Assembly (NCBI GenBank): GCA_964506645.1
Contig: CAZDML010000004.1
Coordinates: 1-43,981 of the forward strand
DNA: 43,981 bases
Reading direction: 5' to 3'
Source: an uncultured Elusimicrobia bacterium
GTDB lineage: Bacteria; Elusimicrobiota; Elusimicrobia; 2-01-FULL-59-12
Part shown: piece after piece, positions 11,935 through 30,937 of the stretch
How positions within the stretch are numbered: position 1 is the first letter of the stretch
How the letters are laid out: each line of letters starts with the position of its first letter
Translations under genes and position numbers: made by a program
Notes under the pieces: model-generated
The model's input: only the letters and a program-made list of their open reading frames with translations
The model's database searches: none
Told to the model about the DNA's origin: nothing

Positions 11935-13884
11935 TTATGCGGCCGTGTCGATGCGTCGTTTGGATTTTCGGGCAGGAAGCGGCGCAGGGTCGGCGTCTTC
12001 CCCTGAGGAATGGAAAATGGTGAGGGTATGCGTCTGGGGATCATATAGCGGCTGCTTCAACAGGTAGTCCGGACTGGCCCAGAACAGCAACTCATCCACT
12101 TCATCGCGCGATAGATACTGTCCGTCACGCACAATGCGAATAATCGCTTCTTCCTGGTTCTGCGAGACCAGAAGTTTCCAGGCGGCCAGTGCGGCCATAG
12201 AAGGAATATCGTGATAGGTGCTCTGCGCGAAACCGCGCAAGCCGCCGGGGACCGCGATTTTTACTGTATGTAAATGTTGCTCGATGCTTTCCCGGGCGGA
12301 TACCAGGAGTCGCAAGAGCACGGGCTGGTCGGTTTTGTGAAGTTCGCTTAAAAGACGCAGACGATGGGTCAGGGTCAGCAGCTTCTTGTACTCAATGAAT
12401 AGAATCCCTGGGATTTTTTCCAGGGCCATGTGAGACATATCCAGTATATGCGTGATCAAATGAGTGTCACGGCCCAGCAGGGTCCTAAAAGCAGCGCCAT
12501 GGTTTTTCCAGATCCATTGCTGTTGAACCAGCAGTTGACCTTCCGGAGGCACGGCGACCAGAACCGTCTTTTTTGTGCTGTGCTTGGAGGGATCCCAGAA
12601 GAGCAGGGGTTTTTTCCTGGGAGCCGCGGCTGATTTTAAAAGAATATCCTCCCACACCCGCTCAAGCATATCGTGCTGCTCCTTGAGCTTAGAGCGCGGG
12701 TGATGCGCGAGCAGGTGCAGTCCTTTGGGTCGGCCGAGATAAATGTCTGAAAACGATAGGCCCGCGTGCGACTGTCTTTCATGTTTGCGATTTTCGTGAT
12801 CCGCATCCGAAGAGGCCGTCCCCTGGGCAGAACGGACGAGGGTCCACAAGGGTTGCTTTTCAGGGAAGAGATCCGGAAATTGGCCGCGCAGAATTTGTAA
12901 ACAGGCCATCAGGTCAAACCCTTCTACGTCCAGCGCATTTTGAATGCGGTCCAGGAGCGCGCGGTGTTGGTGCACAAGCTGGCCTACCGCAATATCCTCG
13001 TCATCCGAATCGGTAGGCGGATGAATGATCAGGGCTGATTGAAGTGCACGGGTAAAGTCGCGCAATTTTTCGATATCTGCAGGCCCGGCTTCTCCATGGG
13101 TGAGCCGAAGGCTGATCGCCTGCATTTCTGGAGCCACTGATTCGATGAGCATCGGATAAATGTTCACGTCGATTTCGTCCACGCCAGAAAGAAATTCGTT
13201 GCGCAAGTGATACCCTTGCAATGCCAGAAGCCGGAGCGCGGCTTCCGGGTAGTGCGCCAGTCGGACCGCCCTTTCTGAAAATCGGACGTGGTAGGCGGCC
13301 GCGGCATGAACCATCCAGTCCCACACGGTGGGCAGCGTATTCGGCCAGGCATCCTCAGTTTTGACCCAGCCGTCCAGGAGATGTTGGGCTGTCTTAAGCA
13401 AGGGCGCGGCCTGAGCTTGCGGAATATCCCCTTCCAGAATTCGCTCCATGACTCGAATCAAATTTTCGTCGCGAGGGTTTTTTAAATCCACATCGAGCAA
13501 ACCGGCGCTAAGGAAAAAACGGTCCCAGGCGGACTCTCCGCTGCCGCTTTTGTGAATTCGAACACCGGGCGGAAGGCTCATGCCTATCGCGATGGGAATT
13601 CCGGAGGGATGGTCCTCGGCATGGCTCCATGTCCAGTTTTTATGAAGAGTCAACGGGGAGTTCTGCCGGATTTTCCAATCGATTGGGGAATGTCCAGTAA
13701 AGGCAACGACCAGTAGAACTGTAAGCGCTTCGGATTCCGTCCGGGGGGTGTAAGACGCATCCCCTGGAGCCGCGTTTGAACGAGGTATTTCTACTAACGG
13801 GAGCGCAGCGGCGACCGCAGGCTCAAAGCCCAGGCAGAAAGCAAGCACCACCGCGGCGCAGCGAAGGAAGAGTTTGTTCGTCAT
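11935..13884 (-). CDS. Hypothetical protein (649 aa from MTNKLF) of the conserved-leader/AA-tail family
   Basis: Leader MTNKLFLRCAAVVLAFCLGFEPAVAAA aligns in register with the two giant ORFs; ends KRRIDTAA. No recognisable domain. Confidence 0.8.
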   Translation of the reverse strand: MTNKLFLRCAAVVLAFCLGFEPAVAAALPLVEIPRSNAAPGDASYTPRTESEALTVLLVVAFTGHSPIDWKIRQNSPLTLHKNWTWSHAEDHPSGIPIAIGMSLPPGVRIHKSGSGESAWDRFFLSAGLLDVDLKNPRDENLIRVMERILEGDIPQAQAAPLLKTAQHLLDGWVKTEDAWPNTLPTVWDWMVHAAAAYHVRFSERAVRLAHYPEAALRLLALQGYHLRNEFLSGVDEIDVNIYPMLIESVAPEMQAISLRLTHGEAGPADIEKLRDFTRALQSALIIHPPTDSDDEDIAVGQLVHQHRALLDRIQNALDVEGFDLMACLQILRGQFPDLFPEKQPLWTLVRSAQGTASSDADHENRKHERQSHAGLSFSDIYLGRPKGLHLLAHHPRSKLKEQHDMLERVWEDILLKSAAAPRKKPLLFWDPSKHSTKKTVLVAVPPEGQLLVQQQWIWKNHGAAFRTLLGRDTHLITHILDMSHMALEKIPGILFIEYKKLLTLTHRLRLLSELHKTDQPVLLRLLVSARESIEQHLHTVKIAVPGGLRGFAQSTYHDIPSMAALAAWKLLVSQNQEEAIIRIVRDGQYLSRDEVDELLFWASPDYLLKQPLYDPQTHTLTIFHSSGEDADPAPLPARKSKRRIDTAA

Positions 13885-13900
13885 TAAAATACCTGCGAAA

Positions 13901-13928
13901 AGTATAGGGGGTTTTGAGCAGCAGACAA
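13901..13928 (-). promoter_or_regulatory. Putative promoter TTGTCT-N16-TATACT, 16 nt upstream of ATG 13884
   Basis: Hexamers read on the minus strand. Confidence 0.5.
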
Positions 13929-14049
13929 ATAGAGCCAAAGTCTATAAATAGGGAGAAAAAGACCCTAAAAAGCCTGGGCCCTTAGGCCTGTATTTTTGCC
14001 CTTCCGATCCATAGATCCACCGACGAGAAGTCGATAGACTTTAGAACGC

Positions 14050-17000
14050 ATGAAATCCCACCTTTTCACACGAATTATTGCGGCCGTTTTGTGCCTTGCG
14101 ATGGGGCAAGAACCTGCAGCACAAGCAGCGCAATGGGCAACGGCCAATGAGCAACGGGCTACACATTGCGCATCGCGCATGGCCCATCGCGACGTTTCTC
14201 CTTTTTCCTCCCAAGCCTTGGTGGGCTGCCTCATCGCAGGCTTTGTCGGCTTTCATGCGCTTCACCAGGGGCATGCCGAGGCTATGCAACTTCGTATCAA
14301 TGCTGGGACCTTGCTGGGGATTTTAACGGGTTCAGCCGTCCTGGGCATTATGAAGTCCGGTGACAGTACCCCTCCTCCTATCGCTCTACAGATTCAGTAC
14401 CTTTCCACGGCGCCTCCCCCGATCTATCAAGACGCGATTCGACATTTTTTTGATGAAGAGGATTACCTTAGTCTTCGCGAAAGCGTACGACTCTCGGGTG
14501 GCCCGGACAATTTGGATGGCTATCGAGTAGCGCTCTTTATAAAAACGGTGCAAAGTGCAGAAATAGCCATTGTTTCTGAAGTCCGCTATGAAGCTATTCA
14601 CACCGTTACAGGAAAAACACATAAAGGGAAATTCGCCCTGCACTCGTCCTGGTTGGACAACCCGGAAGATCTACAGCAGGAGCTGTTAACTCTTGAACGA
14701 CTCCGCAATGACTCGCCCGACTTGTTCGAGAGCATTCCCGCACTCTATACCGTTGCTAGGATTTTGATCGATAGAAATCAACCGATCATTTTCGGAACGA
14801 CGGACTGGGTTCCGGTCGAAGATATTAATTTCCGTCTGAACCCATCGGGAACGCATCTAGAGCCCTACATCACTTATTTGGATCAGCCCTCCGATTCCTT
14901 ATCCCCCGAAGACGCTGATTGGGTGACAAGAGAAATCGCCCGCCTCTTAATTTCCACGGCATTAACTGGAACTACTCTGGTCCCGTCACTCAATACCGGC
15001 ATGTTTGCGCTAGAGCGGCGATCGGGGGATAGGCCTAAAGTCTGGCTTGTCGGAGGAACTCCGCTCAGAGAAGAAGCGATTGAGTCTGCTGTCGGGGCAC
15101 TCGCAGAGCAATTTTTAATGCTTCTGGGTCTTCGACTCTATGATGCCGAAGAGCATCGAGCGAAGAACATGGATACAGGGTTACCCACGCACCCGATTTT
15201 TACCCCCGAACAGTTGCTGGCCGGTTTCCATGCGATGCTCATAGATAAAGTAGGTGCAGTTTCCGGCATGAAATTATTCATCGCCTTTGTCGCTCAGCTG
15301 GGATACAGCATTGAGCGCCTCAACACATTAGAAGAATATACCGGCTTCACCCCCGAAGCACTGACGGAGCGTTTAACAGCCTATTTACACACTCTTCATC
15401 CCAGGGCCATCGTTGCAAAGTCTCCCTGGGGCCAACTCTACGGAGAACTGAATGAAGGCAAAGAGCATCTTCAGACTCTTCTGAAAAAAGAGGGTCTTCA
15501 GATCCTGCTTCGGGCTTACCCGCAGATCCAAGAACTAATCGATACCGCGCGTTTTGCTGACCTGAAAGTTCTCATCGAAGACATCATTGCGCCGGAGCAG
15601 GAAACAACGATTTTGTTCGAAGCGCCGTTCATCCAGTCCCTGAAATATCTTCGACAAATCCAATTTCTAAGAAAAGAGGATGCGGTTCCATTTGTTCGAG
15701 ATGTTTTCAAAGCCATCGTGGGCCAGTTTGTAAACGAACATCAGATTGGTTTTGTGGCAGGCCAATCCGAAGCGATTGCTTTGGCTGTGGAACAGCTTCA
15801 AGCGCTTTATGAGGAAGTTTGGGGGTGGACCGATGATTTGCAAACCTTCATGGTGGAACTTGTGGCTGCGCGCGAGTGGAGTGTCGAAGAAGCCAGCCAC
15901 AAACTAAAACGTCTTCTGGTTGCACTCACCGAGCGGCACCGTACTTACAACCAAAGCATCCGTCTGCGAAAACCCGGCTTTGAGAACAAGCCCTATGCCA
16001 TGACAGGGGGAAGTTCTGAGCGAGCCGTGGTGCGGTGGCCCTACGTGGGTATTGAGGGACAACAGCCCTTGTCCCATACGGGTGTTTGGCCACAAGCTCA
16101 GGCGCTTTTGGACTTTCTGAGCACGCCAACCACGAAATTGCCGAAGTATGCCGACATCATTGTGATTTTTGGCAATGACCTGCTGGCCTCCTCCCGAAAA
16201 GGCGCGGAACTCTATAAGCAATACACAGCGGCGGCCAAAAAACTAGGACGTCCTTTCCCGAAAATATTCGTGACGGGCGGCAGCGGCCGGGACACGCCGG
16301 CGCATTGGGTGAAAGGGGAAGCTCACGCGCATCAGCAAATTCTCCGTGAGCACGCTATTTCACCAGGGCGCATTTTCCGGGAATCAAGAGCAACGAATAC
16401 AGAAGACAATGCCATTGCCGCAGCCAATTTCTTCCTTCAGCGCGGATATACCGAGGAGGATCCTGTCGATACGGTGGTTGTCATTCAAAGCCCTGCCTCG
16501 ACCCTGCGTGCACAGTTGACGCTCGAAAAGTGGGCTGGAACATTGGCCCGGCGGGTCGTGGGTGTTGCCCCTTTTGATCCCGATATCGAGCGGTCCGACC
16601 CGGCCACACGGCTGCGGCTCCTGGAGACCGCCGTCGGTGAAATTGGCCGTCTTCTGGATTATCCGGGCAAAGGCTATTTCCGTGCTGTCGAGATTCCGGA
16701 TGAGATTCTTCAATTAACGTTAGATGTCCAACGCTCACTGCTCACCGATCCTTCTCTGCGGCCAGAAACGCGTACGGCACTGATTCGTTGGGGAGATGTG
16801 ATGAGTGTAGAACTCGTGCGCAGGGCTTTGCCGGCGGGCCGCAGCCCTCAGCACTTTCCGCCTCCGGCTCCATTCGAACCTACGACGCGAATCCTAACAG
16901 CTTCTGGCAATTCCAATATGAGTTATTTGAACCGTCATACGTCGCAATGGTCTTGGATGCGTAGGGAATTGTGGCCCACCATGATTCAAGCCAAAGTCGC

Positions 17001-20000
17001 GGCTGGACGAAAACAGATCGAGGTTATTATTCTTGGGGCCTCCACCGGGGAAGAACTGGCTCGTGCGTATCATGAAATCATTTTGGCTTTGCAGGACCAA
17101 CATGAAGACCCGCGGCAATGGATTCTTCGAATCCAAGGATGGGAAATCGATGCAGGGACGGCAGCCGCTGCCGCGCGGCGCTTAGCGGGCGAAGAACCCT
17201 TTGTGTATGACTTGCCCGAGCGTGCCGACAAAGCGCCTCTTCACCTGGATTATGCTCAGCAATGCGTGAAGACGCTCAATAGTTTTCTGGGTGTGCCTGG
17301 CCATTCTTTAGAAGTGCATCAGGCAGATTTCCAGACAGCACATTTGGATGAGCTCTATCCAGAGACGGACCTCGTTATCGAAAATCAAGTCTTCTATCAG
17401 TTGGGTCTGACGAATGAGTCCATAGCGTTTTATGAACGCTTAGCCCGATGGGCTCGACCCTGGATGGTTGGGGGCGAGTTCTATTATTTGCATCAGTACG
17501 GAGGACGCCCTGTGCGCGAAGTTATGCATGAGACCCCTCTATCGGCGGGAGAACGTACGCATTTAGTCAGCTCCCCTTTAGTTATATCTCCATCAACCGT
17601 CTCTCCCATCCCAAGCATCAAAGTGGTGGCCATCGATTGGAACAGCACGCTTTATTCAGAAAGTAAGCAAACCCTACGGAAGGGAGCACGGGAATTCTTA
17701 GAAGGTCTCGGTGATCGTGGCATCACGGCTTACGTGTGGAGCAATAACCCGGACGTCTGGAATCATGTGATCCGATTCGACCTGACGGGTTTGCTCCAGA
17801 AGCCTGCTTGGATTATTAAGGATAAACGGGCCCAGTTAACGCAGTTGATAGAGCATCTTCGGGTTCCTCCCGATCAGATTGTGGCGATGGGTGATGAGGC
17901 GGCGGATATTCTCGTGGCCAAACGCTTGGGAACAAAAGCCATTCTCATTCGAAGTCGCAGCAGCGTGGATACGTCGCTTCTCGTAGGAAAAATGGTGCCG
18001 GATGCCGTCATCCCCAATCTGTATCATCCCGACAATATCGCAGATCTCATCGCCGGTGGCGTAAACCCCGACCCGGCGGGCCGTCGCTGGACCTCCTTTT
18101 TTGTGCCGCTGCAAGGAAAAATCATTATGGCCATTCCTCAAGACGGCCTTACGGGGGATGAACTGGAACGCTATGTTCGCCGTGTCGCGCCATTTCGGGA
18201 AACAAGACAATTTGTCTGGCCTTTAATGCCCGTGATGATTGTGCCCACGCTCGCCATGGCCGGGCTGCTCAGCGTCCTGCCCTATTCCGACCCTCATTCT
18301 CTGACGGCTAAAACGCTCATTTTTCTTGCTGCGGCCTCGTTCGGCGCTACGGGCGCGGTTGTGAGTGCTTGGCTCTTTCGTCTCGCCCACAGCAAGGTCT
18401 ATCACGTATCCGGACAAGAGCAACATGCGTATATTGGCGCACCTGTTCCACCGACCGCAGACGAAAAACCTCTTCTTTTTAAACGCGGACTGGTGTATGC
18501 CTTGGCGCTGGTGCTTCCTCTCTTGGGTGCTGTGGCGAGCGTCCTTTTGGGTGCGAATGCAGGAGTCGCCGCTGGACTTGCGGTCACATCCCTGGGTGCT
18601 CCCTGGGCCATACACAGCTATCGCAACAATAAGCCGTTCGGGCAGATCTTTGCGGGTCATCCTGTCTGGAAGGAATTGTTGATGGCGCACCCGTCGGAAG
18701 ACTTCCCATCGCTTTATCAAGAATTCTTGAACTTTTTGCGCTTCCTGGGACAGGAAAATCATCGTACTGATAAACCCACAACTCTCTTGCGAGACGCCCA
18801 CCATGTATTAAATCGTTGGAACATCAAACGGGTGGCAAATATTGCCATTCCTGAAGTGGTGCGACCCGATTTTGAAATGCTGAATGCGGGTGTACGACAG
18901 TCGCTTGCTGGCGTGGGCTGGGCTTCTCGAGAAGATATTCTGCAACGCCTTCGCTCCCTGGCTCATGCAGCGCCTCGAAATGAGACAGTCCTTTCCTTGG
19001 GGAGCAGTGATGGTGAGGGACTTCCTTTGCTGGAACTGGTCTTGTCTTATCGTGAAGTCACTCTTGTGGATTTGGACGATGTGAGCTTGCAGCGCGGTAT
19101 GGAGCGGCTACGTCGTGATCTTGTGCAAGATAAGCTTGGGTTAAACGCAGAACAGATAACAGCCATTCTCGCTCGTGTTCATGTGATTCGTGAAGATATT
19201 TCGGGAATTGTCGAAGAATTTACGGGTCACATAGATCATATTCTTCGCGAAGAAACGTCAGATGCCCGCCTTGTGGATGCTTTGGTTACATACCTTCGCT
19301 CCTATGGATCACGCTCTTCTTGGCCCGCACCTGCGTTCGGCGCCCACGATCTTGTTATTTGTCCACTCGTTATGACGCAGCTGCAGTCGGCCTTACCTCA
19401 CGTGATGCAAAAGCAGATCGATGCACGTATTTCTCATTTATCTCGAGAGCAACTCTTGGCCCTGATGGGTGCCGTGAATGAATTTACAGATGCGGTCATG
19501 AAGGCCCACCTGGCACACCTCGAGCAATGGGTAAAACCCACCGGGCATCTCTACTGGTCGGATACGACGGACGAGGTGGAATTTGATATTCGCGGACAAC
19601 AGCAAGCTCTCCCGATGATATCAATGGAGGCGTTCAAAGCTGCGGCCTCCAAGCATTTTGATGTTCGTCCCCTGGATCTCTGGACGTGGATTCAGACGAT
19701 TCCGACCGTCTCCATTTTGGGTCAGCTCTTCTTTGTTGAAGCGTTGGCAATGCGGCCGCATCGTGTGATCTCGGCAGGCATGCGAGTGAGAGACCGCCGA
19801 GGCCAGGAACGTGAGATTGATGAGGTTCGCGAGGATGGCAAGGTTCATCTCACAGGGGATGCCCCTCATATCTACATAAGTATGGGACTTCTGGAGATTG
19901 TTCCTGTTATCTCGCAAGAGGCCAAGAGTGAGGACACAGAGGAAGATGTAAAGCAGGGCACCCCCAGGAATTCCTATTTCTTGCTGCTTGTGCTTTTCTT

Positions 20001-23000
20001 GTTTACTGGCGGTTTGGCCCGTAGTGCGAAAGCGCAGGATGTTTCTATGCCGCATTCGTTCGTGACAGAGATGGTCTGGAGTGATTTTCCGTGGATTTCA
20101 GCATTGCTCGCGGTTGTCATCCCTGCGGCGGCCTGGGTGATATGGAAATACGTTCCTCGGTTTTGGGTGCCAGCCCCTTGGGTCGCTCAGATGGATTCTG
20201 CGGAGACCCGCTGGGAAGGTTGGCAGCAGATCCCTGCAATAGAACCAGAGACCGATGAAGTCGACGCACTCTATCACTTTTATTATTGGAGTCGTCACCC
20301 CGACTGGCAATCCTTGGCACCTCAAGATTGGAAGCAGTTAAAAGGGTTTGTCGAAAGCGCTCAAAAGCGTCAGGCTGCAGAGGGTTTCCCGGTTCTGGTT
20401 CTCCCGCCGGATCTGCTGGCGACGCTGCTCGCACAGCCGGAGGGCCTGGCCGAGCTCCTGCGCCGCGTTCATCCTTACACCCTCCAGTCGCTCGAGCATG
20501 CCGACTCGCCGGTGTCGCGCTTCACCATGCATGAGGGCGTGTACTACCAGCTTTTTGCAGAAAAATTACTTGGACGTCTGCCGGAAGGGGGCGTGAATCT
20601 TATAAATATTGATCCGCATTCGGACGCGATTTACCAGGCCCACGAGTATATGTCGAATCGCTTTTTGCGGGGCACAAATCAGGAGAAGGCCACGCAGCGG
20701 CTGCACTATAAGGGCGTCACAGATTTTAATTGGATCGCCGCCGCGGTCGGGGATGGGCTGGTGCGCGAAGCCGTGACCATCCCGCCGAAGCAAACGATCT
20801 GGACCGTGGGTCATATTCGCCGCCACGCCGAAGGGTGGCCGATGGTTATGGAGACCGATATCAGCGATCTCGGTAAAGCAGCTGAGTTTACTGAGGAGGC
20901 CCCGCTCTGGGTCACCGTGGATATGGATATGTTCAGCTTGCGCTCTGAATTTGTCCCTCAGCAGACGATTTATCATCATGGCGAACGGACGGCACGCGCG
21001 ATCATCGAGCTAATGGTTGCAGATCTTGGGTTGCATCGAAAGAAGATCGATCGCTTGTCGACGGCGGTCTCTCCAACCTACATCTCACTAAAGGCTACCC
21101 CTAAACAGATCGACATGTACCAGAGGGTTACCGAGGAAGTGCTTTCACCGCTGCTTCGGCCCAAGGCGACGGCAGCCCCAACTCCGATGGGGTCGTCCCC
21201 CGTACTCAAGGTACTCTTGGAAGCGTTGGGACTTAGCGATGCGGTCATTGCCAACTCGGAAAATGTGCAAGAGACGGGAGCGCCCTATACCCTCAAGCGG
21301 TTGCAGCTTCCCGTGCGATCGAGTCAGCATGGCGTCCCCCAGGGCCTGGATATTCTTCGACATGAGTTGACACTGCATTACCTAGGCCCCCTGAGTATGG
21401 ACTTGGTGTATTCTAAAGAGGGCACGTTGGTGGCCATTTCGCCGACCCCCAGCACATCCCTTCCTAAAAAACTGTTTTACATCGATGCGACGCCGTACCA
21501 GTTCACTTTTCCGCAATCCTCGGAGGCACGCGCAGAGTGGGAGAAATTTGTAGCGCAATACAAACGGGACCAGGATGTCGTGCGTGTGTATCTGTCCTAC
21601 TTCAAACGATCCAGCGGATTAGAGCCACGACGGCTCAATAGCCTGGCCCCACTCGCGCACGCCCATTACGATGCTGCCGATAAAAAATGGGAGGTCGCCG
21701 GCATAAACATCCATTTATTCGATATTACGCGCTGGCTTTCGGCCGCTGCGAAACTCGGACGCCGTATCGTTTTGCCTGTCTTTCCTACGGTGTATCATCC
21801 GCAGTCCACCCAACTATCAGAATCCGACCGCAACTACTACAAGGCGTTGCACGAAGAGGTGTCTTATAAAAAGGACCAGCGTATTCTGGTTGTCGGTCCC
21901 GGATCCGGACTGGAAGTCTGGGCGTTAGCCCAGAAAACAGAGCTTCCAATTTCTGTCATTGGCATCAATCCGTTGGAAGTCGCCAACGTGAAAGCGCTCG
22001 CTGCGCTCGGGGGCTTTTCCGTTAATATTCTCGTTGGCGATAACGTCATCGATGAAAACGGCCATCCTCGATTCCCGGGAATAGAATTCGATGTCATCGT
22101 CTGGAACATGCCGGCGCTGGAACATCCGCTAACCTACGACTTAACGCATAAGCAGTTGCATCAGTATCACGATGGCGATTTGGGCGGCGAAACCCTCTCC
22201 CGTTTTGGCATTGGACTTCTAAAAGTTCTCGCTCCACAAGGTTACTCTCTTATATGGAACCGCTTGCCGCGCGGTACAGAAAATCCTGCACAGGTGATCC
22301 GAGACTACCTGCATCTGAAGGTAGAGGATTCACAGACGACTTCATTTGAAGTGGAGGAATTAGATCGCGGTGTCTATCGGATTTCCCGCGCGCCTTCGGT
22401 CGCACAGCGCGTGGGAATGGGCATGCCGCACCATCTCTACAACCTTTACCATCCGGAGGCTGTACTGACGCGTTCGGGGGATTCCTCCATGAAACCAAAA
22501 CATTCGCGGCGGCCCTGGGGTGTGATTGTTCTGGGCTTAGCTTCGGGTTTTGCAGGCGGGATGTCCCTTCTACTGGCGCAGAACGGCACGCTGCATGAGA
22601 TGTATCCTGAGGTTCTTCTTTTTACGCTCATCAGTGGTGTCGTGACAAGCCTTGTGTGGGCCTCCCTGCAGGAAATGCATGCTACGAAAAGTGAGTCGTA
22701 TTCTTCACGTCTGAGTATCTACTTAGCGCTGTCGGTTTTGTGTGTTGGCAGTTGTATGCCTCTATCCCTGGGTATTTTTACCGGTGTCTTTATTCATTTG
22801 TTTATTTCGCTCAGTCTTCGCTCCTCCGATGATGCGGTAAAGACGCCGGAAGCGGTTTTGTCGCGACTCTGGCCCGCCTTTTTTGCGTCTTTAGAATCTC
22901 AGCAGCCGGAGGAGCGTGAGCGCGCGGAAGCTGCCTTGATCGATGGGTTGTTCGTTTTTGCCATGCATCCACGTCTCTATCTACGGCGCATTATGACGCT

Positions 23001-23730
23001 GGCCAAACAAGAGCGGGCCACGACGCCTCTATCCGAAGATCATGAACTACGTTGGCTCGCCAAAGAGGCCCAAGGAGCATTGCGCTCCATGGGCGTTGCC
23101 GTTGTCCTGAGCGACGGGCAGGACACCCACGGTTTCTGGCATCTGTCCCCTCGTTTGTATCGTGTGCTGCGTACGGATGCTGCATCTGCCCAGATGGATG
23201 GAAAGCCGCTTCGCATCGTATACGCCCACCATCTCGACAGACGCCCGCGCGCGCAAGACCCGATGTATCTTGATAAGAAGGAGAACGTGCTTTATGTGAA
23301 CATTGATTACTTTGTGGCATTAGCAAAGAAGTTGACGGCGCTCCAAGATCTTCCTGAATTTACGAATGAATTGATCGCCTCATCGGTGCACCATGAATTC
23401 GCCATCCCCTTGTCCGAATATCATTTCGAGCCTCTGCCGTTAGAGGAGGCGCTGTTTTCTCCGGACCGTTCTACGTCCAAGGGACGTTGGTGGAACACGT
23501 TCTTAAAGGGCCTCTTTTTTGGCCTATTTTTTGTTGTTCCTGCGTTGCTCGATGCGCAAACGATCCGTCCGAATGTGGATGCTATGACGCTGGCTTCCAA
23601 AATCCATGGGGTTTCTTCTTCGGGATACTCGGGGGTGTCCTCCTGGACCGTAGACGATCTTTTCCATTCCAAACCCAAAGGGCGGATGGTCACGCCCATC
23701 GATCATGAGCGACTGCGCCGCGCCGCGTAA
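14050..23730 (+). CDS. Giant mosaic membrane protein (3226 aa): conserved leader, possible kinase-like region, DUF218/YdcF, CheR-like methyltransferase, HAD-like, TM bundle, second SAM-MTase, internal signal peptide, UPF0489-like, HemK/MTS-like MTase, TM bundle, internal signal peptide, ..RRAA tail
   Basis: Uninterrupted 9.7-kb ORF. DUF218 IIVIFG..IFVTGGSG..GEA..ESRATNTEDNA (~16150-16540); LGASTGEE (~17035); IDWNSTL..MGDEAADI (~17617-18030); LSLGSSDG..VDLD (~18980-19760); IDPHSD..FNWIAAAV..VDMDMF (~20520-21140); VVGPGSG..DVIVWNMP (~21770-22380). Confidence 0.88.
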   Translation: MKSHLFTRIIAAVLCLAMGQEPAAQAAQWATANEQRATHCASRMAHRDVSPFSSQALVGCLIAGFVGFHALHQGHAEAMQLRINAGTLLGILTGSAVLGIMKSGDSTPPPIALQIQYLSTAPPPIYQDAIRHFFDEEDYLSLRESVRLSGGPDNLDGYRVALFIKTVQSAEIAIVSEVRYEAIHTVTGKTHKGKFALHSSWLDNPEDLQQELLTLERLRNDSPDLFESIPALYTVARILIDRNQPIIFGTTDWVPVEDINFRLNPSGTHLEPYITYLDQPSDSLSPEDADWVTREIARLLISTALTGTTLVPSLNTGMFALERRSGDRPKVWLVGGTPLREEAIESAVGALAEQFLMLLGLRLYDAEEHRAKNMDTGLPTHPIFTPEQLLAGFHAMLIDKVGAVSGMKLFIAFVAQLGYSIERLNTLEEYTGFTPEALTERLTAYLHTLHPRAIVAKSPWGQLYGELNEGKEHLQTLLKKEGLQILLRAYPQIQELIDTARFADLKVLIEDIIAPEQETTILFEAPFIQSLKYLRQIQFLRKEDAVPFVRDVFKAIVGQFVNEHQIGFVAGQSEAIALAVEQLQALYEEVWGWTDDLQTFMVELVAAREWSVEEASHKLKRLLVALTERHRTYNQSIRLRKPGFENKPYAMTGGSSERAVVRWPYVGIEGQQPLSHTGVWPQAQALLDFLSTPTTKLPKYADIIVIFGNDLLASSRKGAELYKQYTAAAKKLGRPFPKIFVTGGSGRDTPAHWVKGEAHAHQQILREHAISPGRIFRESRATNTEDNAIAAANFFLQRGYTEEDPVDTVVVIQSPASTLRAQLTLEKWAGTLARRVVGVAPFDPDIERSDPATRLRLLETAVGEIGRLLDYPGKGYFRAVEIPDEILQLTLDVQRSLLTDPSLRPETRTALIRWGDVMSVELVRRALPAGRSPQHFPPPAPFEPTTRILTASGNSNMSYLNRHTSQWSWMRRELWPTMIQAKVAAGRKQIEVIILGASTGEELARAYHEIILALQDQHEDPRQWILRIQGWEIDAGTAAAAARRLAGEEPFVYDLPERADKAPLHLDYAQQCVKTLNSFLGVPGHSLEVHQADFQTAHLDELYPETDLVIENQVFYQLGLTNESIAFYERLARWARPWMVGGEFYYLHQYGGRPVREVMHETPLSAGERTHLVSSPLVISPSTVSPIPSIKVVAIDWNSTLYSESKQTLRKGAREFLEGLGDRGITAYVWSNNPDVWNHVIRFDLTGLLQKPAWIIKDKRAQLTQLIEHLRVPPDQIVAMGDEAADILVAKRLGTKAILIRSRSSVDTSLLVGKMVPDAVIPNLYHPDNIADLIAGGVNPDPAGRRWTSFFVPLQGKIIMAIPQDGLTGDELERYVRRVAPFRETRQFVWPLMPVMIVPTLAMAGLLSVLPYSDPHSLTAKTLIFLAAASFGATGAVVSAWLFRLAHSKVYHVSGQEQHAYIGAPVPPTADEKPLLFKRGLVYALALVLPLLGAVASVLLGANAGVAAGLAVTSLGAPWAIHSYRNNKPFGQIFAGHPVWKELLMAHPSEDFPSLYQEFLNFLRFLGQENHRTDKPTTLLRDAHHVLNRWNIKRVANIAIPEVVRPDFEMLNAGVRQSLAGVGWASREDILQRLRSLAHAAPRNETVLSLGSSDGEGLPLLELVLSYREVTLVDLDDVSLQRGMERLRRDLVQDKLGLNAEQITAILARVHVIREDISGIVEEFTGHIDHILREETSDARLVDALVTYLRSYGSRSSWPAPAFGAHDLVICPLVMTQLQSALPHVMQKQIDARISHLSREQLLALMGAVNEFTDAVMKAHLAHLEQWVKPTGHLYWSDTTDEVEFDIRGQQQALPMISMEAFKAAASKHFDVRPLDLWTWIQTIPTVSILGQLFFVEALAMRPHRVISAGMRVRDRRGQEREIDEVREDGKVHLTGDAPHIYISMGLLEIVPVISQEAKSEDTEEDVKQGTPRNSYFLLLVLFLFTGGLARSAKAQDVSMPHSFVTEMVWSDFPWISALLAVVIPAAAWVIWKYVPRFWVPAPWVAQMDSAETRWEGWQQIPAIEPETDEVDALYHFYYWSRHPDWQSLAPQDWKQLKGFVESAQKRQAAEGFPVLVLPPDLLATLLAQPEGLAELLRRVHPYTLQSLEHADSPVSRFTMHEGVYYQLFAEKLLGRLPEGGVNLINIDPHSDAIYQAHEYMSNRFLRGTNQEKATQRLHYKGVTDFNWIAAAVGDGLVREAVTIPPKQTIWTVGHIRRHAEGWPMVMETDISDLGKAAEFTEEAPLWVTVDMDMFSLRSEFVPQQTIYHHGERTARAIIELMVADLGLHRKKIDRLSTAVSPTYISLKATPKQIDMYQRVTEEVLSPLLRPKATAAPTPMGSSPVLKVLLEALGLSDAVIANSENVQETGAPYTLKRLQLPVRSSQHGVPQGLDILRHELTLHYLGPLSMDLVYSKEGTLVAISPTPSTSLPKKLFYIDATPYQFTFPQSSEARAEWEKFVAQYKRDQDVVRVYLSYFKRSSGLEPRRLNSLAPLAHAHYDAADKKWEVAGINIHLFDITRWLSAAAKLGRRIVLPVFPTVYHPQSTQLSESDRNYYKALHEEVSYKKDQRILVVGPGSGLEVWALAQKTELPISVIGINPLEVANVKALAALGGFSVNILVGDNVIDENGHPRFPGIEFDVIVWNMPALEHPLTYDLTHKQLHQYHDGDLGGETLSRFGIGLLKVLAPQGYSLIWNRLPRGTENPAQVIRDYLHLKVEDSQTTSFEVEELDRGVYRISRAPSVAQRVGMGMPHHLYNLYHPEAVLTRSGDSSMKPKHSRRPWGVIVLGLASGFAGGMSLLLAQNGTLHEMYPEVLLFTLISGVVTSLVWASLQEMHATKSESYSSRLSIYLALSVLCVGSCMPLSLGIFTGVFIHLFISLSLRSSDDAVKTPEAVLSRLWPAFFASLESQQPEERERAEAALIDGLFVFAMHPRLYLRRIMTLAKQERATTPLSEDHELRWLAKEAQGALRSMGVAVVLSDGQDTHGFWHLSPRLYRVLRTDAASAQMDGKPLRIVYAHHLDRRPRAQDPMYLDKKENVLYVNIDYFVALAKKLTALQDLPEFTNELIASSVHHEFAIPLSEYHFEPLPLEEALFSPDRSTSKGRWWNTFLKGLFFGLFFVVPALLDAQTIRPNVDAMTLASKIHGVSSSGYSGVSSWTVDDLFHSKPKGRMVTPIDHERLRRAA
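14128..14199. repeat. In-frame heptamer-periodic imperfect palindrome inside the giant ORF
   Basis: gcaatgg-gcaacgg-ccaatga-gcaacgg / attgcgc-atcgcgc-atggccc-atcgcga; GCGCAATG (14128) is the reverse complement of CATTGCGC (14164). Confidence 0.6.
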
Positions 23731-23776: not shown

Positions 23777-24475
23777 ATGCCTCGATTAACAGGACTTTCC
23801 TTAGCCTTTCCCTGTCATAACGAAGAAGCCAATGTAGAGCGTGTGACGCGAGACGCGCTGCGCGTGGCGGCCCAGGTGGCGGATCGTTATGAAGTGATTC
23901 TTGTCGATGACGGCAGTCGCGACCGCACCGCGGAGATCGTGACGCGTCTAGCGCAGGAGTTTCCCCAGGTGCGTCTCGTGCGGCACCCGGTCAATAAAGG
24001 ATACGGTGAGGCGCTTAAATCCGGTTTTCGCGCGGCAACCATGCCCTGGGTGTTTTATTCCGATGGGGATGGACAATTTGATCTTAATGAACTACCCGCA
24101 CTGATTGAAAAAACGAAAGAGGCCGATATTGTTTCTGGTATTCGTGTTCACCGCGCTGACCCTTGGCATCGCAAAATGAATGCCGCTATTTTTGAACTGG
24201 CGGGCCGGATATTCTTCGGGTTACATGTACCCGATGTTGATTGTGCCTTTAAAATTTATAGGCGGGATCTTTTCGATAAGATTCGCATGAACACTTCGGG
24301 GGCCATGATCGATACGGAAGTATTGGTCAAAGCCAAACGGGCGGGATACCGTATCACGACCCTACCCGTTCGGCATCTCCCTCGGCAAGCCGGAGTGCAA
24401 TCCGGTGCGAAACTGCGCGTGATTCTGCGTGCCATGAAAGAATTCTGGGTGTTGTGGTGGGATCTGAGAAAGTAG
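23777..24475 (+). CDS. GT2 glycosyltransferase (polyprenol-phosphate sugar synthase, DPM1-like)
   Basis: FPCHNEE, VILVDDGSRD, NKGYGEA, DGDGQ (DxD), DVDCAFK motifs. Confidence 0.9.
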   Translation: MPRLTGLSLAFPCHNEEANVERVTRDALRVAAQVADRYEVILVDDGSRDRTAEIVTRLAQEFPQVRLVRHPVNKGYGEALKSGFRAATMPWVFYSDGDGQFDLNELPALIEKTKEADIVSGIRVHRADPWHRKMNAAIFELAGRIFFGLHVPDVDCAFKIYRRDLFDKIRMNTSGAMIDTEVLVKAKRAGYRITTLPVRHLPRQAGVQSGAKLRVILRAMKEFWVLWWDLRK

Positions 24476-26526
24476 CACAACGCCGTCTGGTGTGGACCGT
24501 CCTGGCGGCGATGGTTCTGGTCGCCGGGAGCATCATCCGGTGGCATCGTATCGACACGCGCCCGCCGGCCTGGGACCAGAGCGTGCATCTCCATCTCGCT
24601 CTCGACTATCGTGACTGTCTCCTTCACGGAAAACCCGTCACTTCTCCCTGGACGGCTGTTTATCCGCCGCTGTATCACCTTTCCTTAATCCCGGTATTGT
24701 CGCTCGGGACCCCTTCCGAAGCCAAAGCCGCGTTCATGCATCTGTTTTATTTTGCACTTCTCCTGTGGGGGCTTCTGCGCTTAACGCGAAGACTGGGCGC
24801 GGAGCCCGAAACCGCTGTGCTGGCGGGACTGCTGAGCGCGTCCTACGCCATTGTCATTTACACCATGCATTACGCACTGATCGATTTTCCGCTGACGGCG
24901 TGGGTTGTTTTTTCACTGGCGCTTCTCGCTGAGACCGAATCATTTACGCATCGCCGGAATTCTCTGATGTGGGGTGTTAGCGCCGGCTTGGGCGTCTTAT
25001 TTAAATTCCCTTTCGTACTTTTCTTTGCGGGGCCTGTTGCAGTAGCCATCGTCCAAAGCCGTTCGCGCAAAAACGCAGGGCTGGCTATTCTTACAGCGGT
25101 TGCTGTAGCTGCCCTGTGGTATGGTTGGCAGGGACCGGTCTTTCTACAGAACGCGCTCGGTTTGGCCGGAGAACGCGGTGCAGCGGAAGGGGACCCCTCC
25201 TGGACCCAGTGGCAGGGGTGGGCGTTTTACCTGGGCGCGCTGTACGACCAGCTGGGCATGGGCCCTCTTCTCTTCACGGGGATAGGGCTTGTTCTTTTTG
25301 TAGGAAAAAAAGAAGCACGCTCTCGCGCTGGTCTCATTGGTCTGACCTTGCTTTCCGGCTATCTGCTCTTCACGCTAATTCATAACAAGGATTTTCGCTA
25401 CACCACGCCTCTCTTGCCGCTCTTGGCCCTTCTTACGATCCTGGGCTATTATGGGACCGTTCGAAATCGGGGGGGCCGAGCCGTGATCACCGCCTGTGTG
25501 CTCGGACTCTGGCAGTGGAATGTGACGCATGTGGATTTGCCGCGTGCTGAGCACTGGAAGCATCGTGAGTTGGGCGAGATTCTGACGCACGCGCACGATC
25601 CTTCGCAGCCGTTTCTTCTCGTGAGCGTGTTGTCCAATCACCCGATGCTCTTTGGGCGAAACTTGCGCTGGAGTCTGCGATCGCAAGGAATCCGCATGGA
25701 TACTTCGTCGGTCGGTGATCCCAACGCGGACTTTGCCGAATTTGTGATTACAAAGTCGGGGGACGGCGGGCCGGAATCGGATGCGATTCGTCGTACGTGG
25801 CAATCACTGCAGGACGCCGGCCGGTCGTTTACAGCACTATTTCGTCCGATCGCTCAGGTGGATCTTCCGGATGGAAGCCAGGCGACGGTCTATCAGCGCG
25901 ATGTGCATCCGCGCTTCAAAGTGACACCGCTGAGCGTCAAAGCGGTGGAGAAAAAGATTCTTATGCTTGCGCGTGAGGCTGCAGGGAAGGGCTCGAAAGT
26001 TGTTATCCTGGCTACACCTGAACAGCTGCGCGAAGGGCGTATGGCCTTGGCGCGCCTGCATCTTCAAAACGGAACCGTGCAGGGTATTGCGTTGCCGCCC
26101 ATCGATGCAGAAATCACCGAAGCCCGACTGAATTTGTACCGACTTTACGACCGTCATGAGCCAGGGCTCTTGTCCTTTGGGTCACTGCACGTGAGCACTC
26201 AGATATCAGCACGGCAGGTCGAAGAAGAACTGAATTCGCGCGTGAAAGGCTTATCGAAAGCGCAGGCTCACTTTAAAAATGGCACGGTCGGCGTCCATGC
26301 GCGGCTTCACGGTATACCTCTTTCGGCATGGGCGCGCGTGGCTATTAAAAACGAGAAGCTCGTTGCGACAATCACCTGGTTGCGCGTCGCAGGGGTTCCG
26401 ATTCCTGGATTCTTGTTCGGGAAAGTCCACATTCAGAGCGTTCCGCTTTATCCAATTCCGTCGTTCCCGGGCCGTATTGATATCCGCAACCTCCACCTCG
26501 ACAACGATCTATTAACGCTCTCATGA
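24454..26526 (+). CDS. GT-C fold membrane glycosyltransferase (ArnT/GT39-like) with C-terminal LmeA/DUF2993-like domain
   Basis: PPAWDQSVH first-loop acidic motif, YPPLYH, about 11 TMs, KFPF, NKDFRY; C-terminal beta-rich soluble region. Confidence 0.8.
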   Translation: MVGSEKVAQRRLVWTVLAAMVLVAGSIIRWHRIDTRPPAWDQSVHLHLALDYRDCLLHGKPVTSPWTAVYPPLYHLSLIPVLSLGTPSEAKAAFMHLFYFALLLWGLLRLTRRLGAEPETAVLAGLLSASYAIVIYTMHYALIDFPLTAWVVFSLALLAETESFTHRRNSLMWGVSAGLGVLFKFPFVLFFAGPVAVAIVQSRSRKNAGLAILTAVAVAALWYGWQGPVFLQNALGLAGERGAAEGDPSWTQWQGWAFYLGALYDQLGMGPLLFTGIGLVLFVGKKEARSRAGLIGLTLLSGYLLFTLIHNKDFRYTTPLLPLLALLTILGYYGTVRNRGGRAVITACVLGLWQWNVTHVDLPRAEHWKHRELGEILTHAHDPSQPFLLVSVLSNHPMLFGRNLRWSLRSQGIRMDTSSVGDPNADFAEFVITKSGDGGPESDAIRRTWQSLQDAGRSFTALFRPIAQVDLPDGSQATVYQRDVHPRFKVTPLSVKAVEKKILMLAREAAGKGSKVVILATPEQLREGRMALARLHLQNGTVQGIALPPIDAEITEARLNLYRLYDRHEPGLLSFGSLHVSTQISARQVEEELNSRVKGLSKAQAHFKNGTVGVHARLHGIPLSAWARVAIKNEKLVATITWLRVAGVPIPGFLFGKVHIQSVPLYPIPSFPGRIDIRNLHLDNDLLTLS

Positions 26527-26612: not shown

Positions 26613-26783
26613 GCAACTCGAGGAAGAGAAGCGCCTGCAGATTTAGCCTGGTCTAGACGAGAGAGCAGCCAGCTTGGCTCAGTCGCTGAACAGCGACTTA
26701 ATCGAATGTTCCTCAAGTTTGCTGGCTGGCGGCCAGACCGGGCGTCAAAAATCTGCACAAGCGCTGATTTTTCCTCGCTGTGC
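26613..26783 (+). ncRNA. Candidate structured ncRNA: ~165-nt imperfect rod with central bubble (6S RNA-like)
   Basis: Nested pairings CGAGGAA/TTCCTCG, AGCGC/GCGCT, TGCAGATTT/AAATCTGCA, GCCTGGTCT/AGACCGGGC; bubble 26655-26665 opposite 26729-26734; CAGCCAGC/GCTGGCTG; terminal AGTCGCT-GAAC-AGCGACT. G-U wobbles favour the + strand. Confidence 0.55.
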
Positions 26784-26805
26784 TCTTCCCAGAAGAAAAA
26801 AACGC

Positions 26806-28233
26806 ATGAATCGTAAACACCTGTGGCTTATTTTGGGATTTAGTTTCCTGGTACATCTGCCGGGACTGACGTCACCCCTTCTGGATTATCACGCGCATCG
26901 CCAGACCCAGACGATGTCCATGGCGCGCAATTTCGCTCGGCATGGCATGCACTTCCTCTCACCGGAAGTGGATAATTTTGGCTGGCCCACTCGTACCGGC
27001 ACCGAATTCCCTATTTACAGCTATTTGGTAGCGTTCCTCTTCAAATTGTTTGGCGAGCGTGACCTGTGGGGTCGCCTGCTGAGCTGTGTGTTTGCCGCGG
27101 GTGGGGCGGTGTTTCTATACCGATTTGTTCAGCGACGGCTCGGTGAGCGTTCGGCGCTGTGGGCGGCGCTCTCGATGTGTGTGGTCCCGGTCCATCTTTA
27201 TTTTACGCGGGCGGTGATGCCAGAACCGATGGCGCTCTGGGGGGTTCTGGGTTTTCTGGATTACTTTGATAAAGCCCAGCGAGAGACGGGGAGCCAGTCA
27301 TGGGGGTATTACGTTGCTGCAACCGTGCTGGGGGCCTTCGGTCCGATGTTAAAACTTCCATACCTTTATGCGCTTGCTCCGTTGTATTTCCTTCTTATTC
27401 TTGAAAAATATCCATTGCGCATTGCCCAGTGCGCATGGCGTCTGCTTCCGTTAGGCGTGATTCTTCTTGCCACAGGACTTTGGTACCGATATGCGCGCAC
27501 GGCACCGGCCGTTGTGTTGCCGCTGGACAAAGATTATTTTTGGAATAACCTGCAGGCGTCGCGGACGGCGCACCTCTGGGAAGCGCAGCTCGTTTCCCGG
27601 TTGCCAGAAATTTGTTTTACCTACGCGGGTCTTGTCTTTGCAGTGATAGGCGGAACGTACTTCTGGAAAAACCGCGAGCACCGCTGGTTTCTCGCCTGGC
27701 TGTTGGTGGGGGTGTTTTATACGGGAATGATTGGGGACTATGGTCTGATTCATCGCTATACGCTACTGCCCTGGGCACCGATCGCGGCGGTTTATATCGG
27801 AATGGGCATCGCGTGCATGCAGGACTGGGCGGGGGATATTTCGAAGCGCCGTGCGTTGTGGTTGGTTCTTGTCTTGGCGATTCCCATCCACGCAGGGTTT
27901 CGCATTAAACATTGGTACCGTGTCGAACGGCAGTGGCTCTTCCGCGCTCGCGACGTGGTCGCTCGCGTCAGCACACCGAAAGATCTCTGGATTACCAATA
28001 CGGCCGAAGATCCCGTGCTGTTGTACTACATCGACCGCTACGGTTTTTCTGTCGACTGTGGGGACAAGGGGCTCACCCGCATGGCGGGTTTTAAAATTCG
28101 CGGCGCAAAGTTCTTTTTAACCCCGACGGAAGGCAACTGGAGCAAACATCCGGAATTCGCTGCCTATTTCAATAAAACGGCGAAACTTTTGCACACCGAC
28201 CCCGAGTTCGTTATCTATCAAATTCAGAAGTAA
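26806..28233 (+). CDS. GT-C fold membrane glycosyltransferase (ArnT/GT39 family)
   Basis: HAHRQTQT, TEFPIYSY, GRLLS, SRA-like FTRAVMPEP, LKLP, HRYTLLP motifs; multi-TM. Likely start MNRKHLW at 26806 rather than 26674. Confidence 0.85.
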   Translation: MNRKHLWLILGFSFLVHLPGLTSPLLDYHAHRQTQTMSMARNFARHGMHFLSPEVDNFGWPTRTGTEFPIYSYLVAFLFKLFGERDLWGRLLSCVFAAGGAVFLYRFVQRRLGERSALWAALSMCVVPVHLYFTRAVMPEPMALWGVLGFLDYFDKAQRETGSQSWGYYVAATVLGAFGPMLKLPYLYALAPLYFLLILEKYPLRIAQCAWRLLPLGVILLATGLWYRYARTAPAVVLPLDKDYFWNNLQASRTAHLWEAQLVSRLPEICFTYAGLVFAVIGGTYFWKNREHRWFLAWLLVGVFYTGMIGDYGLIHRYTLLPWAPIAAVYIGMGIACMQDWAGDISKRRALWLVLVLAIPIHAGFRIKHWYRVERQWLFRARDVVARVSTPKDLWITNTAEDPVLLYYIDRYGFSVDCGDKGLTRMAGFKIRGAKFFLTPTEGNWSKHPEFAAYFNKTAKLLHTDPEFVIYQIQK

Positions 28234-28248: not shown

Positions 28249-28274
28249 TAGAAGTCTTTAAAAAAGCGACTTTC

Positions 28275-28346
28275 GTCCTCATCGACTAGCGGTTAGGTCA
28301 GGTCCCTCTCAAGGACCAAGCACGGGTTCGATTCCCGTTGGGGACG
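28275..28346 (+). tRNA. tRNA-Glu (anticodon CTC); CCA not encoded
   Basis: Acceptor GTCCTCA/TGGGGAC, D-arm GAC..GTC, anticodon arm GGTCC-CTCTCAA-GGACC, T-arm ACGGG-TTCGATT-CCCGT. Confidence 0.95.
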
Positions 28347-28356
28347 GAAGTCGCTT

Positions 28357-30840: not shown

Positions 30841-30847
30841 ATGGGCA

Positions 30848-30900: not shown

Positions 30901-30937
30901 TTGTCCACAGTTGTTCGTTCTTTTCGACAATAAGTTG

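Follow-up and report, generated by a model that had tools for sequence, protein, structure and literature searches.

The giant proteins of Omnitrophota known as archaeovorins have been described as patchworks rich in transmembrane (TM) helices and composed of a jumble of divergent metabolic domains, amongst which HAD_2, Radical_SAM, NUDIX and GGDEF are frequent and a methyltransferase fold was seen by structure prediction only (bioRxiv 10.1101/2023.11.21.568195). Proteins of more than 5000 amino acids (aa) are enriched in Elusimicrobiota and Omnitrophica and were left uncharacterised by the survey that reported them (PMC11573180), and giant proteins have been linked to prey contact (Kizina et al. 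2022, PMC9004380; West-Roberts et al. 2023, bioRxiv 10.1101/2023.11.21.568195). Patchwork giants are common in Omnitrophota/Elusimicrobiota and their working is unexplained, the described examples of 10-85 kaa (thousand aa) being too large to be expressed or to be folded in silico. The present analysis concerns a giant open reading frame (ORF) of 3226 aa plus stop at 14050..23730 on the forward strand of a DNA stretch of 43,981 nucleotides (nt) from an uncultured Elusimicrobia bacterium (positions 1 to 43,981 of contig CAZDML010000004.1, GenBank assembly GCA_964506645.1), which as a whole will be referred to as the window.

The encoded protein is a membrane-anchored mosaic of the beads-on-a-string type, in which TM hairpins or bundles and segments resembling signal peptides lie between independently folding enzyme modules of at least five different folds, with about 12 hydrophobic segments in five groups. 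As judged from sequence and model comparisons, four of the recognisable modules are probably S-adenosylmethionine (SAM)-binding folds (DUF218/YdcF-type, CheR-like, NNMT-like and HemK-like), and the fifth is HAD phosphatase-like. An initial annotation of the same DNA had proposed six domains, namely three methyltransferase folds, HAD, DUF218 and UPF0489, joined by linkers and TM bundles; five of these six calls hold, the HemK-like one with sub-threshold support, all the motifs quoted were located, and the hydrophobic bundles do lie between the domains in the hydropathy profile.

Enzyme modules of the giant protein

The DUF218 module (YdcF/SanA/ElyC superfamily) occupies aa ~696-912 (16135..16785; this and all other coordinates within the giant are on the forward strand) and was delimited by Pfam and by a subfamily alignment. 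PF02698 matches at aa 702-842 with an E value of 9.3e-13 (48.7 bits vs. a cut-off of 27.6), far over threshold and in agreement with the initial call. An exhaustive HMMER search was run with aa 690-1889 against 1.84 billion representative sequences and its best 150 matches were evaluated; among the matches listed, 75 representatives match the DUF218 module, and an alignment with 13 relatives shows that the giant retains all invariants of its subfamily (G, E, N, N, R, R, Y). Like YdcF, SanA and ElyC of Escherichia coli the module keeps the ATNTxxN and R-containing motifs in addition to the Pfam match. However, it falls into a separate subfamily characterised by the C-terminal extension VGExxRLxxYPxKGF, which occurs in the form of stand-alone proteins of ~200-270 aa as well as within giants. 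Since YdcF of E. coli binds SAM (PMC12176290), the module was counted as a presumptive SAM-binding fold, and the periplasmic relatives SanA and ElyC act on envelope polymer synthesis (PMC12176290).

A CheR-like class I SAM methyltransferase module of a family here designated 'SYLNRH...STGEE' follows at aa ~935-1150 (16852..17499), as supported by alignment, profile, AlphaFold2 (AF2) and Foldseek. Among the matches listed there are 45 relatives of aa 925-1160, most of the family being found inside giant proteins, and the alignment of 26 sequences yields the consensus SYLNRHxxQWxWLR...LGASTGEELARxFHE...W.I.I.G.E.D...RL.G..PF...YA...TLN.Y...DLVL.N.VL. All family-invariant residues are retained in the giant, where STGEE lies at aa 998-1002 (nt 17041-17055). 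The profile built from the 26 sequences matches the whole methyltransferase domain of Bacillus subtilis CheR (5ftw) with an E value of 0.0076, and the AF2 model computed on the alignment (pLDDT 87.8, pTM 0.87) finds in Foldseek as its best match the methyltransferase domain of Pseudomonas aeruginosa CheR1 (5xlx, E = 9e-5, TM-score 0.5-0.6), followed by other class I methyltransferases. With respect to CheR itself (PF01739; 1af7, 5ftw, 5xlx), the module thus has in common a class I fold that is nearest to CheR/CheR1, the STGEE motif and the acidic residue ending beta-2. It differs in that no part of the giant matches Pfam CheR or CheR_N at E <= 10, that the structural similarity comes with only ~12% identity, and that an N-terminal 'SYLNRHxxQWxW' element stands in the place of CheR_N. 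PF01739 matches one of 13 other giants scanned by Pfam, the region of the match within that giant not being specified. As the initial annotation had remarked for this domain, there is also no chemotaxis context, genes for MCPs or CheA/W/B being absent from the 44-kb window.

The module at aa ~1583-1905 (18796..19764) was recognised by alignment, AF2 and Foldseek as a class I methyltransferase of the NNMT/PNMT type. It has 33 relatives among the matches listed, which share the motifs LGxGxGxDIP, LVDxD, DxTG and FVxSxLVxSQL, and its AF2 model reaches a pLDDT of ~90+ across aa 1555-1935. The top 50 Foldseek matches range from E = 1.5e-9 to 2.4e-8, with NNMT, PNMT and INMT (PF01234; 2iip, 2an3, 2a14) as the best ones at a probability of 1.0 over ~300 aligned columns; however, identity to these enzymes is 13-16%, the PF01234 profile does not match the module, and the giant carries a long helical insertion. 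Methyltransf_11/12/25 match 2-4 of 21 relatives. Where the family consensus is LGxGxGxDIP...LVDxD...DxTG, the giant has LGSSDGEGLP in its first motif. The stretch coding for this module (18850-19450, aa 1600-1800) also has the lowest G + C content at third codon positions (GC3) in the window, 0.41-0.47, which is under the mean of every gene examined (0.53-0.67), and therefore it may be the most recently acquired module.

The HAD-superfamily module at aa ~1190-1325 (17617..18024) was placed by Pfam, NCBIfam and motif coordinates. The Pfam matches are marginally over threshold (PF00702 with 27.0 vs. 26.4 bits, PF13242 with 23 vs. 22 bits), and a YqeG-type model matches with E = 7e-6. As in HAD phosphatases (YqeG/IIIA-type, PF00702/PF13242), motifs I to IV follow in order, i.e. 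motif I with the nucleophile Asp1196, motif II VWSNN, the motif III Lys and motif IV GDEAAD. However, the phosphatase motif I DxDxT with both aspartates is not present: motif I reads D1196-W-N-S-T (aa 1196-1200, nt 17635-17649) with N1198 at Asp+2, just as the initial annotation had stated when it noted the loss of the second Asp. Since a homologous HAD domain (28% identity, pairwise E = 2e-6) in P0023, a giant encoded in the metagenome-assembled genome (MAG) of a related Elusimicrobiota bacterium, reads DWTET with Thr at the same position, DWNST would not reflect simple decay, and the Asp+2 replacement in D-W-[NT]-x-T looks like a trait shared within a subfamily. Within the superfamily, branches that are not phosphatases and keep the phospho-aspartate for longer typically have a non-acidic residue at Asp+2, e.g. 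Thr in P-type ATPases.

The HemK/MTS-like module at aa ~2601-2790 (21850..22419; VVGPGSG, VIGINP, WNMPA) is suggested by motifs and by hidden Markov models below threshold, namely TIGR00537 (E = 2.7e-5, 24 bits vs. a cut-off of 87), NF011529 (E = 4.8e-4, far below its cut-off) and Methyltransf_25 (E = 0.02-0.26), and the segment has no match in a PDB sequence search. Both peptides in which the acidic SAM-binding positions had been reported as lost were found, VVGPGSG at aa 2614-2620 (nt 21889-21909) and VIGINP at aa 2636-2641 (nt 21955-21972). Of the three methyltransferase folds proposed, the CheR-like and NNMT-like ones are backed by confident AF2 models and the HemK-like one by the sub-threshold models. 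The further suggestion that several domains are degenerate stands in part, since the change in the HAD module is shared with P0023 and the invariants of the DUF218 and CheR-like modules are kept, whereas the HemK-like module has lost its contacts and the NNMT-like loop, which had not been flagged before, deviates as well.

In turn, the call of a UPF0489 domain has nothing beyond motif resemblance to support it. The region in question (aa ~2100-2330, 20347..21039) contains NIDPHSD (aa 2186-2192, nt 20605-20625; DxHxD), NWI and VDMDMFS (DxDxDxFS), which we take to resemble motifs of UPF0489 and the arginase clan and regard as a lead rather than as a test. UPF0489 (PF12640, arginase/deacetylase clan) gave no Pfam match at E <= 10 in any of six cuts of aa 2031-2350, neither a PDB sequence match nor a plasmid match by tblastn was obtained, the word-index search returned no homologues from which an alignment could be built, and a single-sequence AF2 model was unusable (pLDDT 30-40).

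Shared module pool, membrane layout and integrity of the gene

No protein of the same architecture was found. None of the 150 best HMMER matches spans more than one module, the word-index search with the whole protein, in which sensitivity is reduced for long queries, returned only the protein itself, scans with back-translated peptides of 185,579 GTDB species genomes and of JGI metagenomes revealed no relative of the whole protein, and a PDB sequence search with the whole giant gave no match. A homologue with a fixed architecture, which the initial annotation had named as evidence against its reading, is thus absent from the word-index searches, the contig scans and, for aa 690-1889, the HMMER search. 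However, 37 of the 150 best matches are proteins of 1000-5841 aa in which the same module lies at another position, and the CheR-like, NNMT-like and DUF218 modules match inside Omnitrophota/Elusimicrobiota proteins of 2-6 kaa at 25-37% identity (25-40% for single modules overall). A Pfam census of 13 such giants lists DUF218, several methyltransferase types, APH, Metallophos, Lactamase_B, Aldo_ket_red, Radical_SAM, HATPase_c, ABC1, CheR, HAD, peptidases and NAGPA. Giants with a named source come from Candidatus Omnitrophota (P0018, P0039, P0081 and P0144) and from Elusimicrobiota (P0118), while P0023 and P0005 are encoded in the MAGs of loci L008 and L006, respectively, the MetG proteins of which are both 69% identical to that of the window. 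These comparisons indicate that the modules are drawn from a pool shared with other patchwork proteins of 2-6 kaa in Elusimicrobiota/Omnitrophota, each with its own set and order, and of the roles considered at the outset (multi-effector, ligand-sensing array or domain-shuffling reservoir) the last is the description that fits best, as giants of differing composition contain the same modules in differing places. That the protein is one case of a class already described had escaped the initial annotation.

The genes of giants are surrounded by housekeeping genes and are often close to toxin-antitoxin pairs. Such pairs (Phd/ParE, HicAB, AbiEi/AbiEii, RHH/PIN) were found shortly downstream of giants in three unrelated contigs (L081 23908-27341, L083 19166-19722, L084 16286-16943), which suggests that giants occupy variable regions of the genome. 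In giants of other lineages, the motif A-G-[AV]-E-E recurs between modules, with seven copies in P0008 (L083 10001-19030) and three in P0002 (L084 581-11278) vs. 0.11 expected per locus, and several CheR-like modules start directly after AG[LV]EE..FP.P. AG[AV]EE may mark module boundaries or cleavage sites; the window does not contain it.

The membrane segments of the giant were derived from hydropathy in a 19-residue window. The protein begins with a signal-peptide-like leader at aa 1-27 (MKSHLFTRIIAAVLCLAMGQEPAAQAA; 14050..14130), read from the sequence and found in the same pattern on two other genes of the window, and a hydrophobic segment at aa 83-101 (14296..14352; hydropathy 1.64) is a probable TM anchor. 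Between this anchor and the DUF218 module lies a soluble region without recognisable family (aa ~105-690, 14362..16119), for which Pfam and homologue searches were empty. TM bundle 1 with about four hydrophobic helices (aa 1392-1516, 18223..18597) separates the HAD from the NNMT-like module, which is followed by an internal signal-peptide-like segment at aa 1972-1995 (...LARSAKA/QD, the slash here and below marking the putative cleavage site; hydrophobic at aa 1975-1995) and a TM helix at aa 2013-2031 (together 19963..20142). A soluble region without Pfam match (aa ~2331-2600, 21040..21849) precedes the HemK-like module, and TM bundle 3 with three to four helices (aa ~2823-2922, 22516..22815) leads into a C-terminal soluble region (aa ~2925-3145, 22822..23484), again without Pfam match and recognisable family. 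The last signal-peptide-like hydrophobic segment, aa 3146-3169 (...VVPALLDA/QT, 23485..23556; hydropathy segment at aa 3151-3172), is followed by a tail of 57 aa ending in ...ERLRRAA (23557..23727). Three segments of the giant show a Sec n-h-c layout in which Gln or Ala comes after a small-x-small site, namely the leader (...EPAAQA/AQ), ...ARSAKA/QD and ...ALLDA/QT. For the regions without family, Pfam scans of 17 sub-segments of the giant (E <= 10) gave nothing useful, and aa 1-689 and aa 2040-2820 matched only themselves in word-index searches.

The giant ORF is a genuine single gene of the Elusimicrobiota bacterium. It is one uninterrupted frame of 9.7 kb, as originally listed, and the order of G + C content by codon position (GC1 > GC3 > GC2) is of the coding type and maintained over its entire length. 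The shift in codon usage and G + C content that had been noticed by eye is real but modest and includes the richer stretch at ~20330-21250: in windows of 150 codons, GC3 falls to 0.41-0.47 at aa 1600-1800 and rises to 0.63-0.69 at aa 2100-2500, with a mean of 0.555 for the giant gene as compared to averages of 0.53-0.67 for other genes of the window, and the extremes lie ~3.3-3.6 standard deviations from the mean (binomial standard deviation ~0.04). No tandem or internal repeats were found within the ORF, nor any paralogy to other proteins of the window.

Genomic neighbourhood and the -Ala-Ala ends

With exbD/tonB, rlmD, thrC, tatD, metG, holB and tmk, the window represents ordinary chromosome. 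Several MAGs of uncultured Elusimicrobiota have a MetG with 68-72% identity to that of the window and are syntenic with it over the block tmk-holB-metG-tatD-3D-hyp-thrC; synteny stops at thrC (31141-32406), and in the 10-kb flanks of the relatives' metG loci the giant ORF, the glycosyltransferases described below and the Sel1 protein are all absent. Downstream of the giant, at a distance of 47 bp and with no terminator-like site in the gap, lies a GT2 glycosyltransferase of the polyprenyl-phosphate sugar synthase type (23777..24475, +; Glycos_transf_2, E = 6.6e-32), the best NCBIfam matches of which are ArnC, dolichyl-P-hexose transferase and PpgS. Its stop is overlapped by a GT-C glycosyltransferase of the PMT/ArnT-like type (24454..26526, +; PMT, PMT_2), and a second, Agl23-like GT-C follows at 26674..28233 (+; PMT_2, E = 1.1e-10). 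The block 3646-28233 may be a lineage-specific insertion. A tRNA-Glu(CTC) at 28274-28347 (+) comes directly after the second GT-C, and the relatives' loci contain no tRNA. Between this tRNA and thrC, on the strand opposite to the glycosyltransferases, a protein of 732 aa with 14 Sel1 repeats is encoded (28876-31074, -; Pfam E = 4.8e-146).

Two further proteins of the window, both on the reverse strand, deserve mention. That of 690 aa at 40795-42867 (-) carries at its C-terminus a sorting domain of type IX secretion (TIGR04183, 28.2 bits vs. a cut-off of 23) with a PorZ-like tail (E = 5.9e-13), which is unexpected in an Elusimicrobiota genome, the sorting system being known above all from the Bacteroidota group. 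That of 657 aa at 38685-40658 (-) has no family match and combines a leader with at least two signal-peptide-like or TM segments (...AGSMALG/QDAP, ...LLFPSAAFA/DG). It thus shows the grammar of internal signal peptides as well, but its end is ...GFSA.

The leader of the giant, M-[KT]-x-x-x-F-x-R-..-A-x-V-L-A-..-L-G-x-[ED]-P-A-x-A-A, has similar counterparts in a protein of 1666 aa (3646-8646, -) and one of 667 aa (11935-13938, -), and all three have C-termini in -Ala-Ala (-AA), an end which none of the 20 other window proteins read has. The 1666-aa neighbour is built in the same way as the giant: a response-regulator receiver domain at aa 267-347 and a 6-phosphogluconolactonase/NagB-like domain at aa 579-815 come before a TM bundle, after which an internal signal-peptide-like segment (...SRNLSA/QS), a soluble C-terminal domain and a last TM helix complete the chain. 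The -AA end is also seen in four further large proteins of the sister MAGs: P0023, the product of a gene of more than 8000 aa upstream of P0023, a nearby unknown protein of 1023 aa, and P0005 (ends at L081 8006, 18805 and 23849 and at L087 10172). Across these seven proteins the ends read RRAA (giant), KTAA, DTAA, KRAA, ACAA, AAAA and SVAA. A conserved DNA element as the source of these ends was considered and rejected, as there is no conservation at DNA level around the three stop codons. The ssrA tag (...ALAA) is read by ClpXP, FtsH and Tsp, and by analogy the -AA end may be a class-specific ssrA-like degron or sorting mark.

Proposed role and comparison with known systems

With a probability of roughly 45%, we assume that the membrane-tethered modules use methylation and phospho-ester chemistry to modify lipid-linked or envelope glycoconjugate precursors at the cytoplasmic face of the membrane. 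The soluble modules would lie on the cytoplasmic face, where SAM is available and which is the only sensible site for the methyltransferase modules, given that SAM-dependent enzymes need SAM. Provided that the leader is removed and only a single additional helix crosses the membrane, all enzyme modules would be kept in the cytoplasm by the even-numbered bundles. The TM segments would hold the modules at the inner membrane, each acting independently, and would thereby concentrate methyl-transfer and phospho-ester chemistry beside the polyprenyl-phosphate glycosylation machinery encoded downstream (the ArnC/DPM1-type GT2 and the two GT-C enzymes). In this scheme the HAD module would not be dead: with its general acid/base at Asp+2 replaced by Asn, it would have a long-lived phospho-aspartate or be a slow, specialised phosphotransferase.

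Several observations weigh against this proposal. About 45% of the giant is without assignable fold or family (aa 105-690, 2035-2600 and 2925-3145), and its topology is ambiguous: one or two weak hydrophobic segments follow the leader, and spanning of both weak N-terminal segments would put the first 1300 residues into the periplasm, an implausible place for SAM-dependent enzymes. The GT2/GT-C neighbourhood is not conserved beside the other giants examined, and no conserved partner genes speak for any activity of the protein. Moreover, the HemK-like module has lost both acidic SAM contacts and reads WNMPA where motif IV has (D/N)PPY, and the glycine loop of the NNMT-like module is G-S-S-D-G-E-G as opposed to the family's G-x-G-x-G-x-D, so that two of the most conserved positions differ; given these deviations, some modules of the giant may be inactive.

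Alternatively, the giant might be a membrane polyprotein, synthesised as one chain and cut by signal peptidase I after A1995 (...ARSAKA/QD) and A3169 (...ALLDA/QT), maybe with the help of other proteases, into several separately acting membrane proteins and a C-terminal peptide of 57 aa, in a way that would be analogous to the signal-peptidase processing of flaviviruses. The three Sec-type segments with small residues at -1 and -3 and a following Gln or Ala are in line with this idea, as are the same grammar in the 1666-aa neighbour (...SRNLSA/QS) and in P0008 (...SIAGA/AQ) and the recurrence of AG[AV]EE between the modules of other giants, where it looks like a boundary or cleavage mark, and the cleavage of giant proteins has also been raised by West-Roberts et al. 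(bioRxiv 10.1101/2023.11.21.568195). However, internal hydrophobic segments of such a type also occur as ordinary TM helices, the window lacks AG[AV]EE, and no dedicated protease domain was found in the giant ORF; we therefore consider the polyprotein unlikely. A wider version, according to which the three leader-bearing large proteins of the window and their relatives in the sister MAGs form a lineage-specific class of mosaic membrane polyproteins, with a Sec leader and an ssrA-like -AA end, inserted co-translationally, cut by signal peptidase into separate enzymes and limited in lifetime by AAA+ or tail-specific proteases reading -AA, is a long shot. If true, it would be a bacterial counterpart of viral polyprotein processing and a way to evolve and deploy shuffled enzyme modules.

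The modules in common with Omnitrophota giants, the N-terminal leader and multiple TM segments, the periplasmic location of the DUF218 relatives SanA and ElyC (PMC12176290) and the prey contact to which giant proteins have been tied by Kizina et al. and West-Roberts et al. would also agree with a cell-surface machine for predation or host interaction as proposed for archaeovorins, in which most modules are exported and act on the envelope of another cell. This is rather improbable, because the giant is far smaller (3.2 kaa), shows none of the domains on which the archaeovorin proposal was based (SecA-DEAD, HEAT, glycoside hydrolase, peptidase or adhesin-like), and would have its SAM-dependent methyltransferases without cofactor outside the cell. 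Equally doubtful is a scaffold or sensor made of pseudoenzymes, in which several modules are non-catalytic ligand-binding (SAM or phosphate-ester) or docking units of a membrane signalling platform: the Asn at Asp+2 of the HAD module, the deviations just listed for the HemK-like and NNMT-like modules and the response-regulator receiver domain of the neighbouring 1666-aa mosaic protein speak for it, but the HAD change is conserved in P0023, which suggests function, no family-invariant residue is missing from the CheR-like and DUF218 modules, and the giant ORF contains no recognisable signalling output domain. A chimeric assembly, or a decaying fusion which is not expressed as a functional protein, is, finally, a very improbable explanation of the ORF. 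The sequence is known from one contig without a second assembly, GC3 spreads from 0.41 to 0.69 along the ORF and its architecture is a singleton. However, the 9.7-kb frame is uninterrupted and coding-like in codon-position composition throughout, repeats at which a mis-join would be expected are absent, one flank is syntenic with related MAGs, similar mosaic giants were assembled independently from related genomes, some of them on contigs of 64-186 kb, and family-invariant residues are retained in the modules. The sequence itself gave no sign of the chimera which the initial annotation had named as a possible refutation.

Whichever role applies, the giant repeats in 3.2 kaa the grammar of leader, enzyme modules, TM bundles and internal signal-peptide-like segments, and with at least four modules that can be modelled or assigned it is a small and tractable representative of such proteins. 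The two module families newly delineated here, the 'SYLNRH...STGEE' CheR-like and the NNMT-like one, reside largely inside giants and are therefore handles for finding and comparing them, and the -Ala-Ala C-terminus is a concrete and testable mark of a class.

As compared to the archaeovorins, the giant of the window is 3.2 kaa vs. >10-85 kaa in size and comes from Elusimicrobiota and not from Omnitrophota, SecA-DEAD, HEAT, GT5/GT1, peptidase C39/S8 and glycoside hydrolase domains were not detected in it by Pfam/NCBIfam, and nothing points to a predatory lifestyle. Since it is smaller and without the SecA-DEAD, HEAT, glycosyltransferase and peptidase domains that are emphasised there, it would not be filed as an archaeovorin in the strict sense. 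On the other hand, both are patchworks of unrelated and often divergent enzyme domains (HAD_2, methyltransferases and others) among many TM helices, both have large unannotatable stretches, in both every protein has an architecture of its own, and specific modules of the giant have their best relatives inside Omnitrophota giants. From these comparisons, the giant of the window is most appropriately considered as a small addition to an already noticed but unexplained class of mosaic giant proteins.

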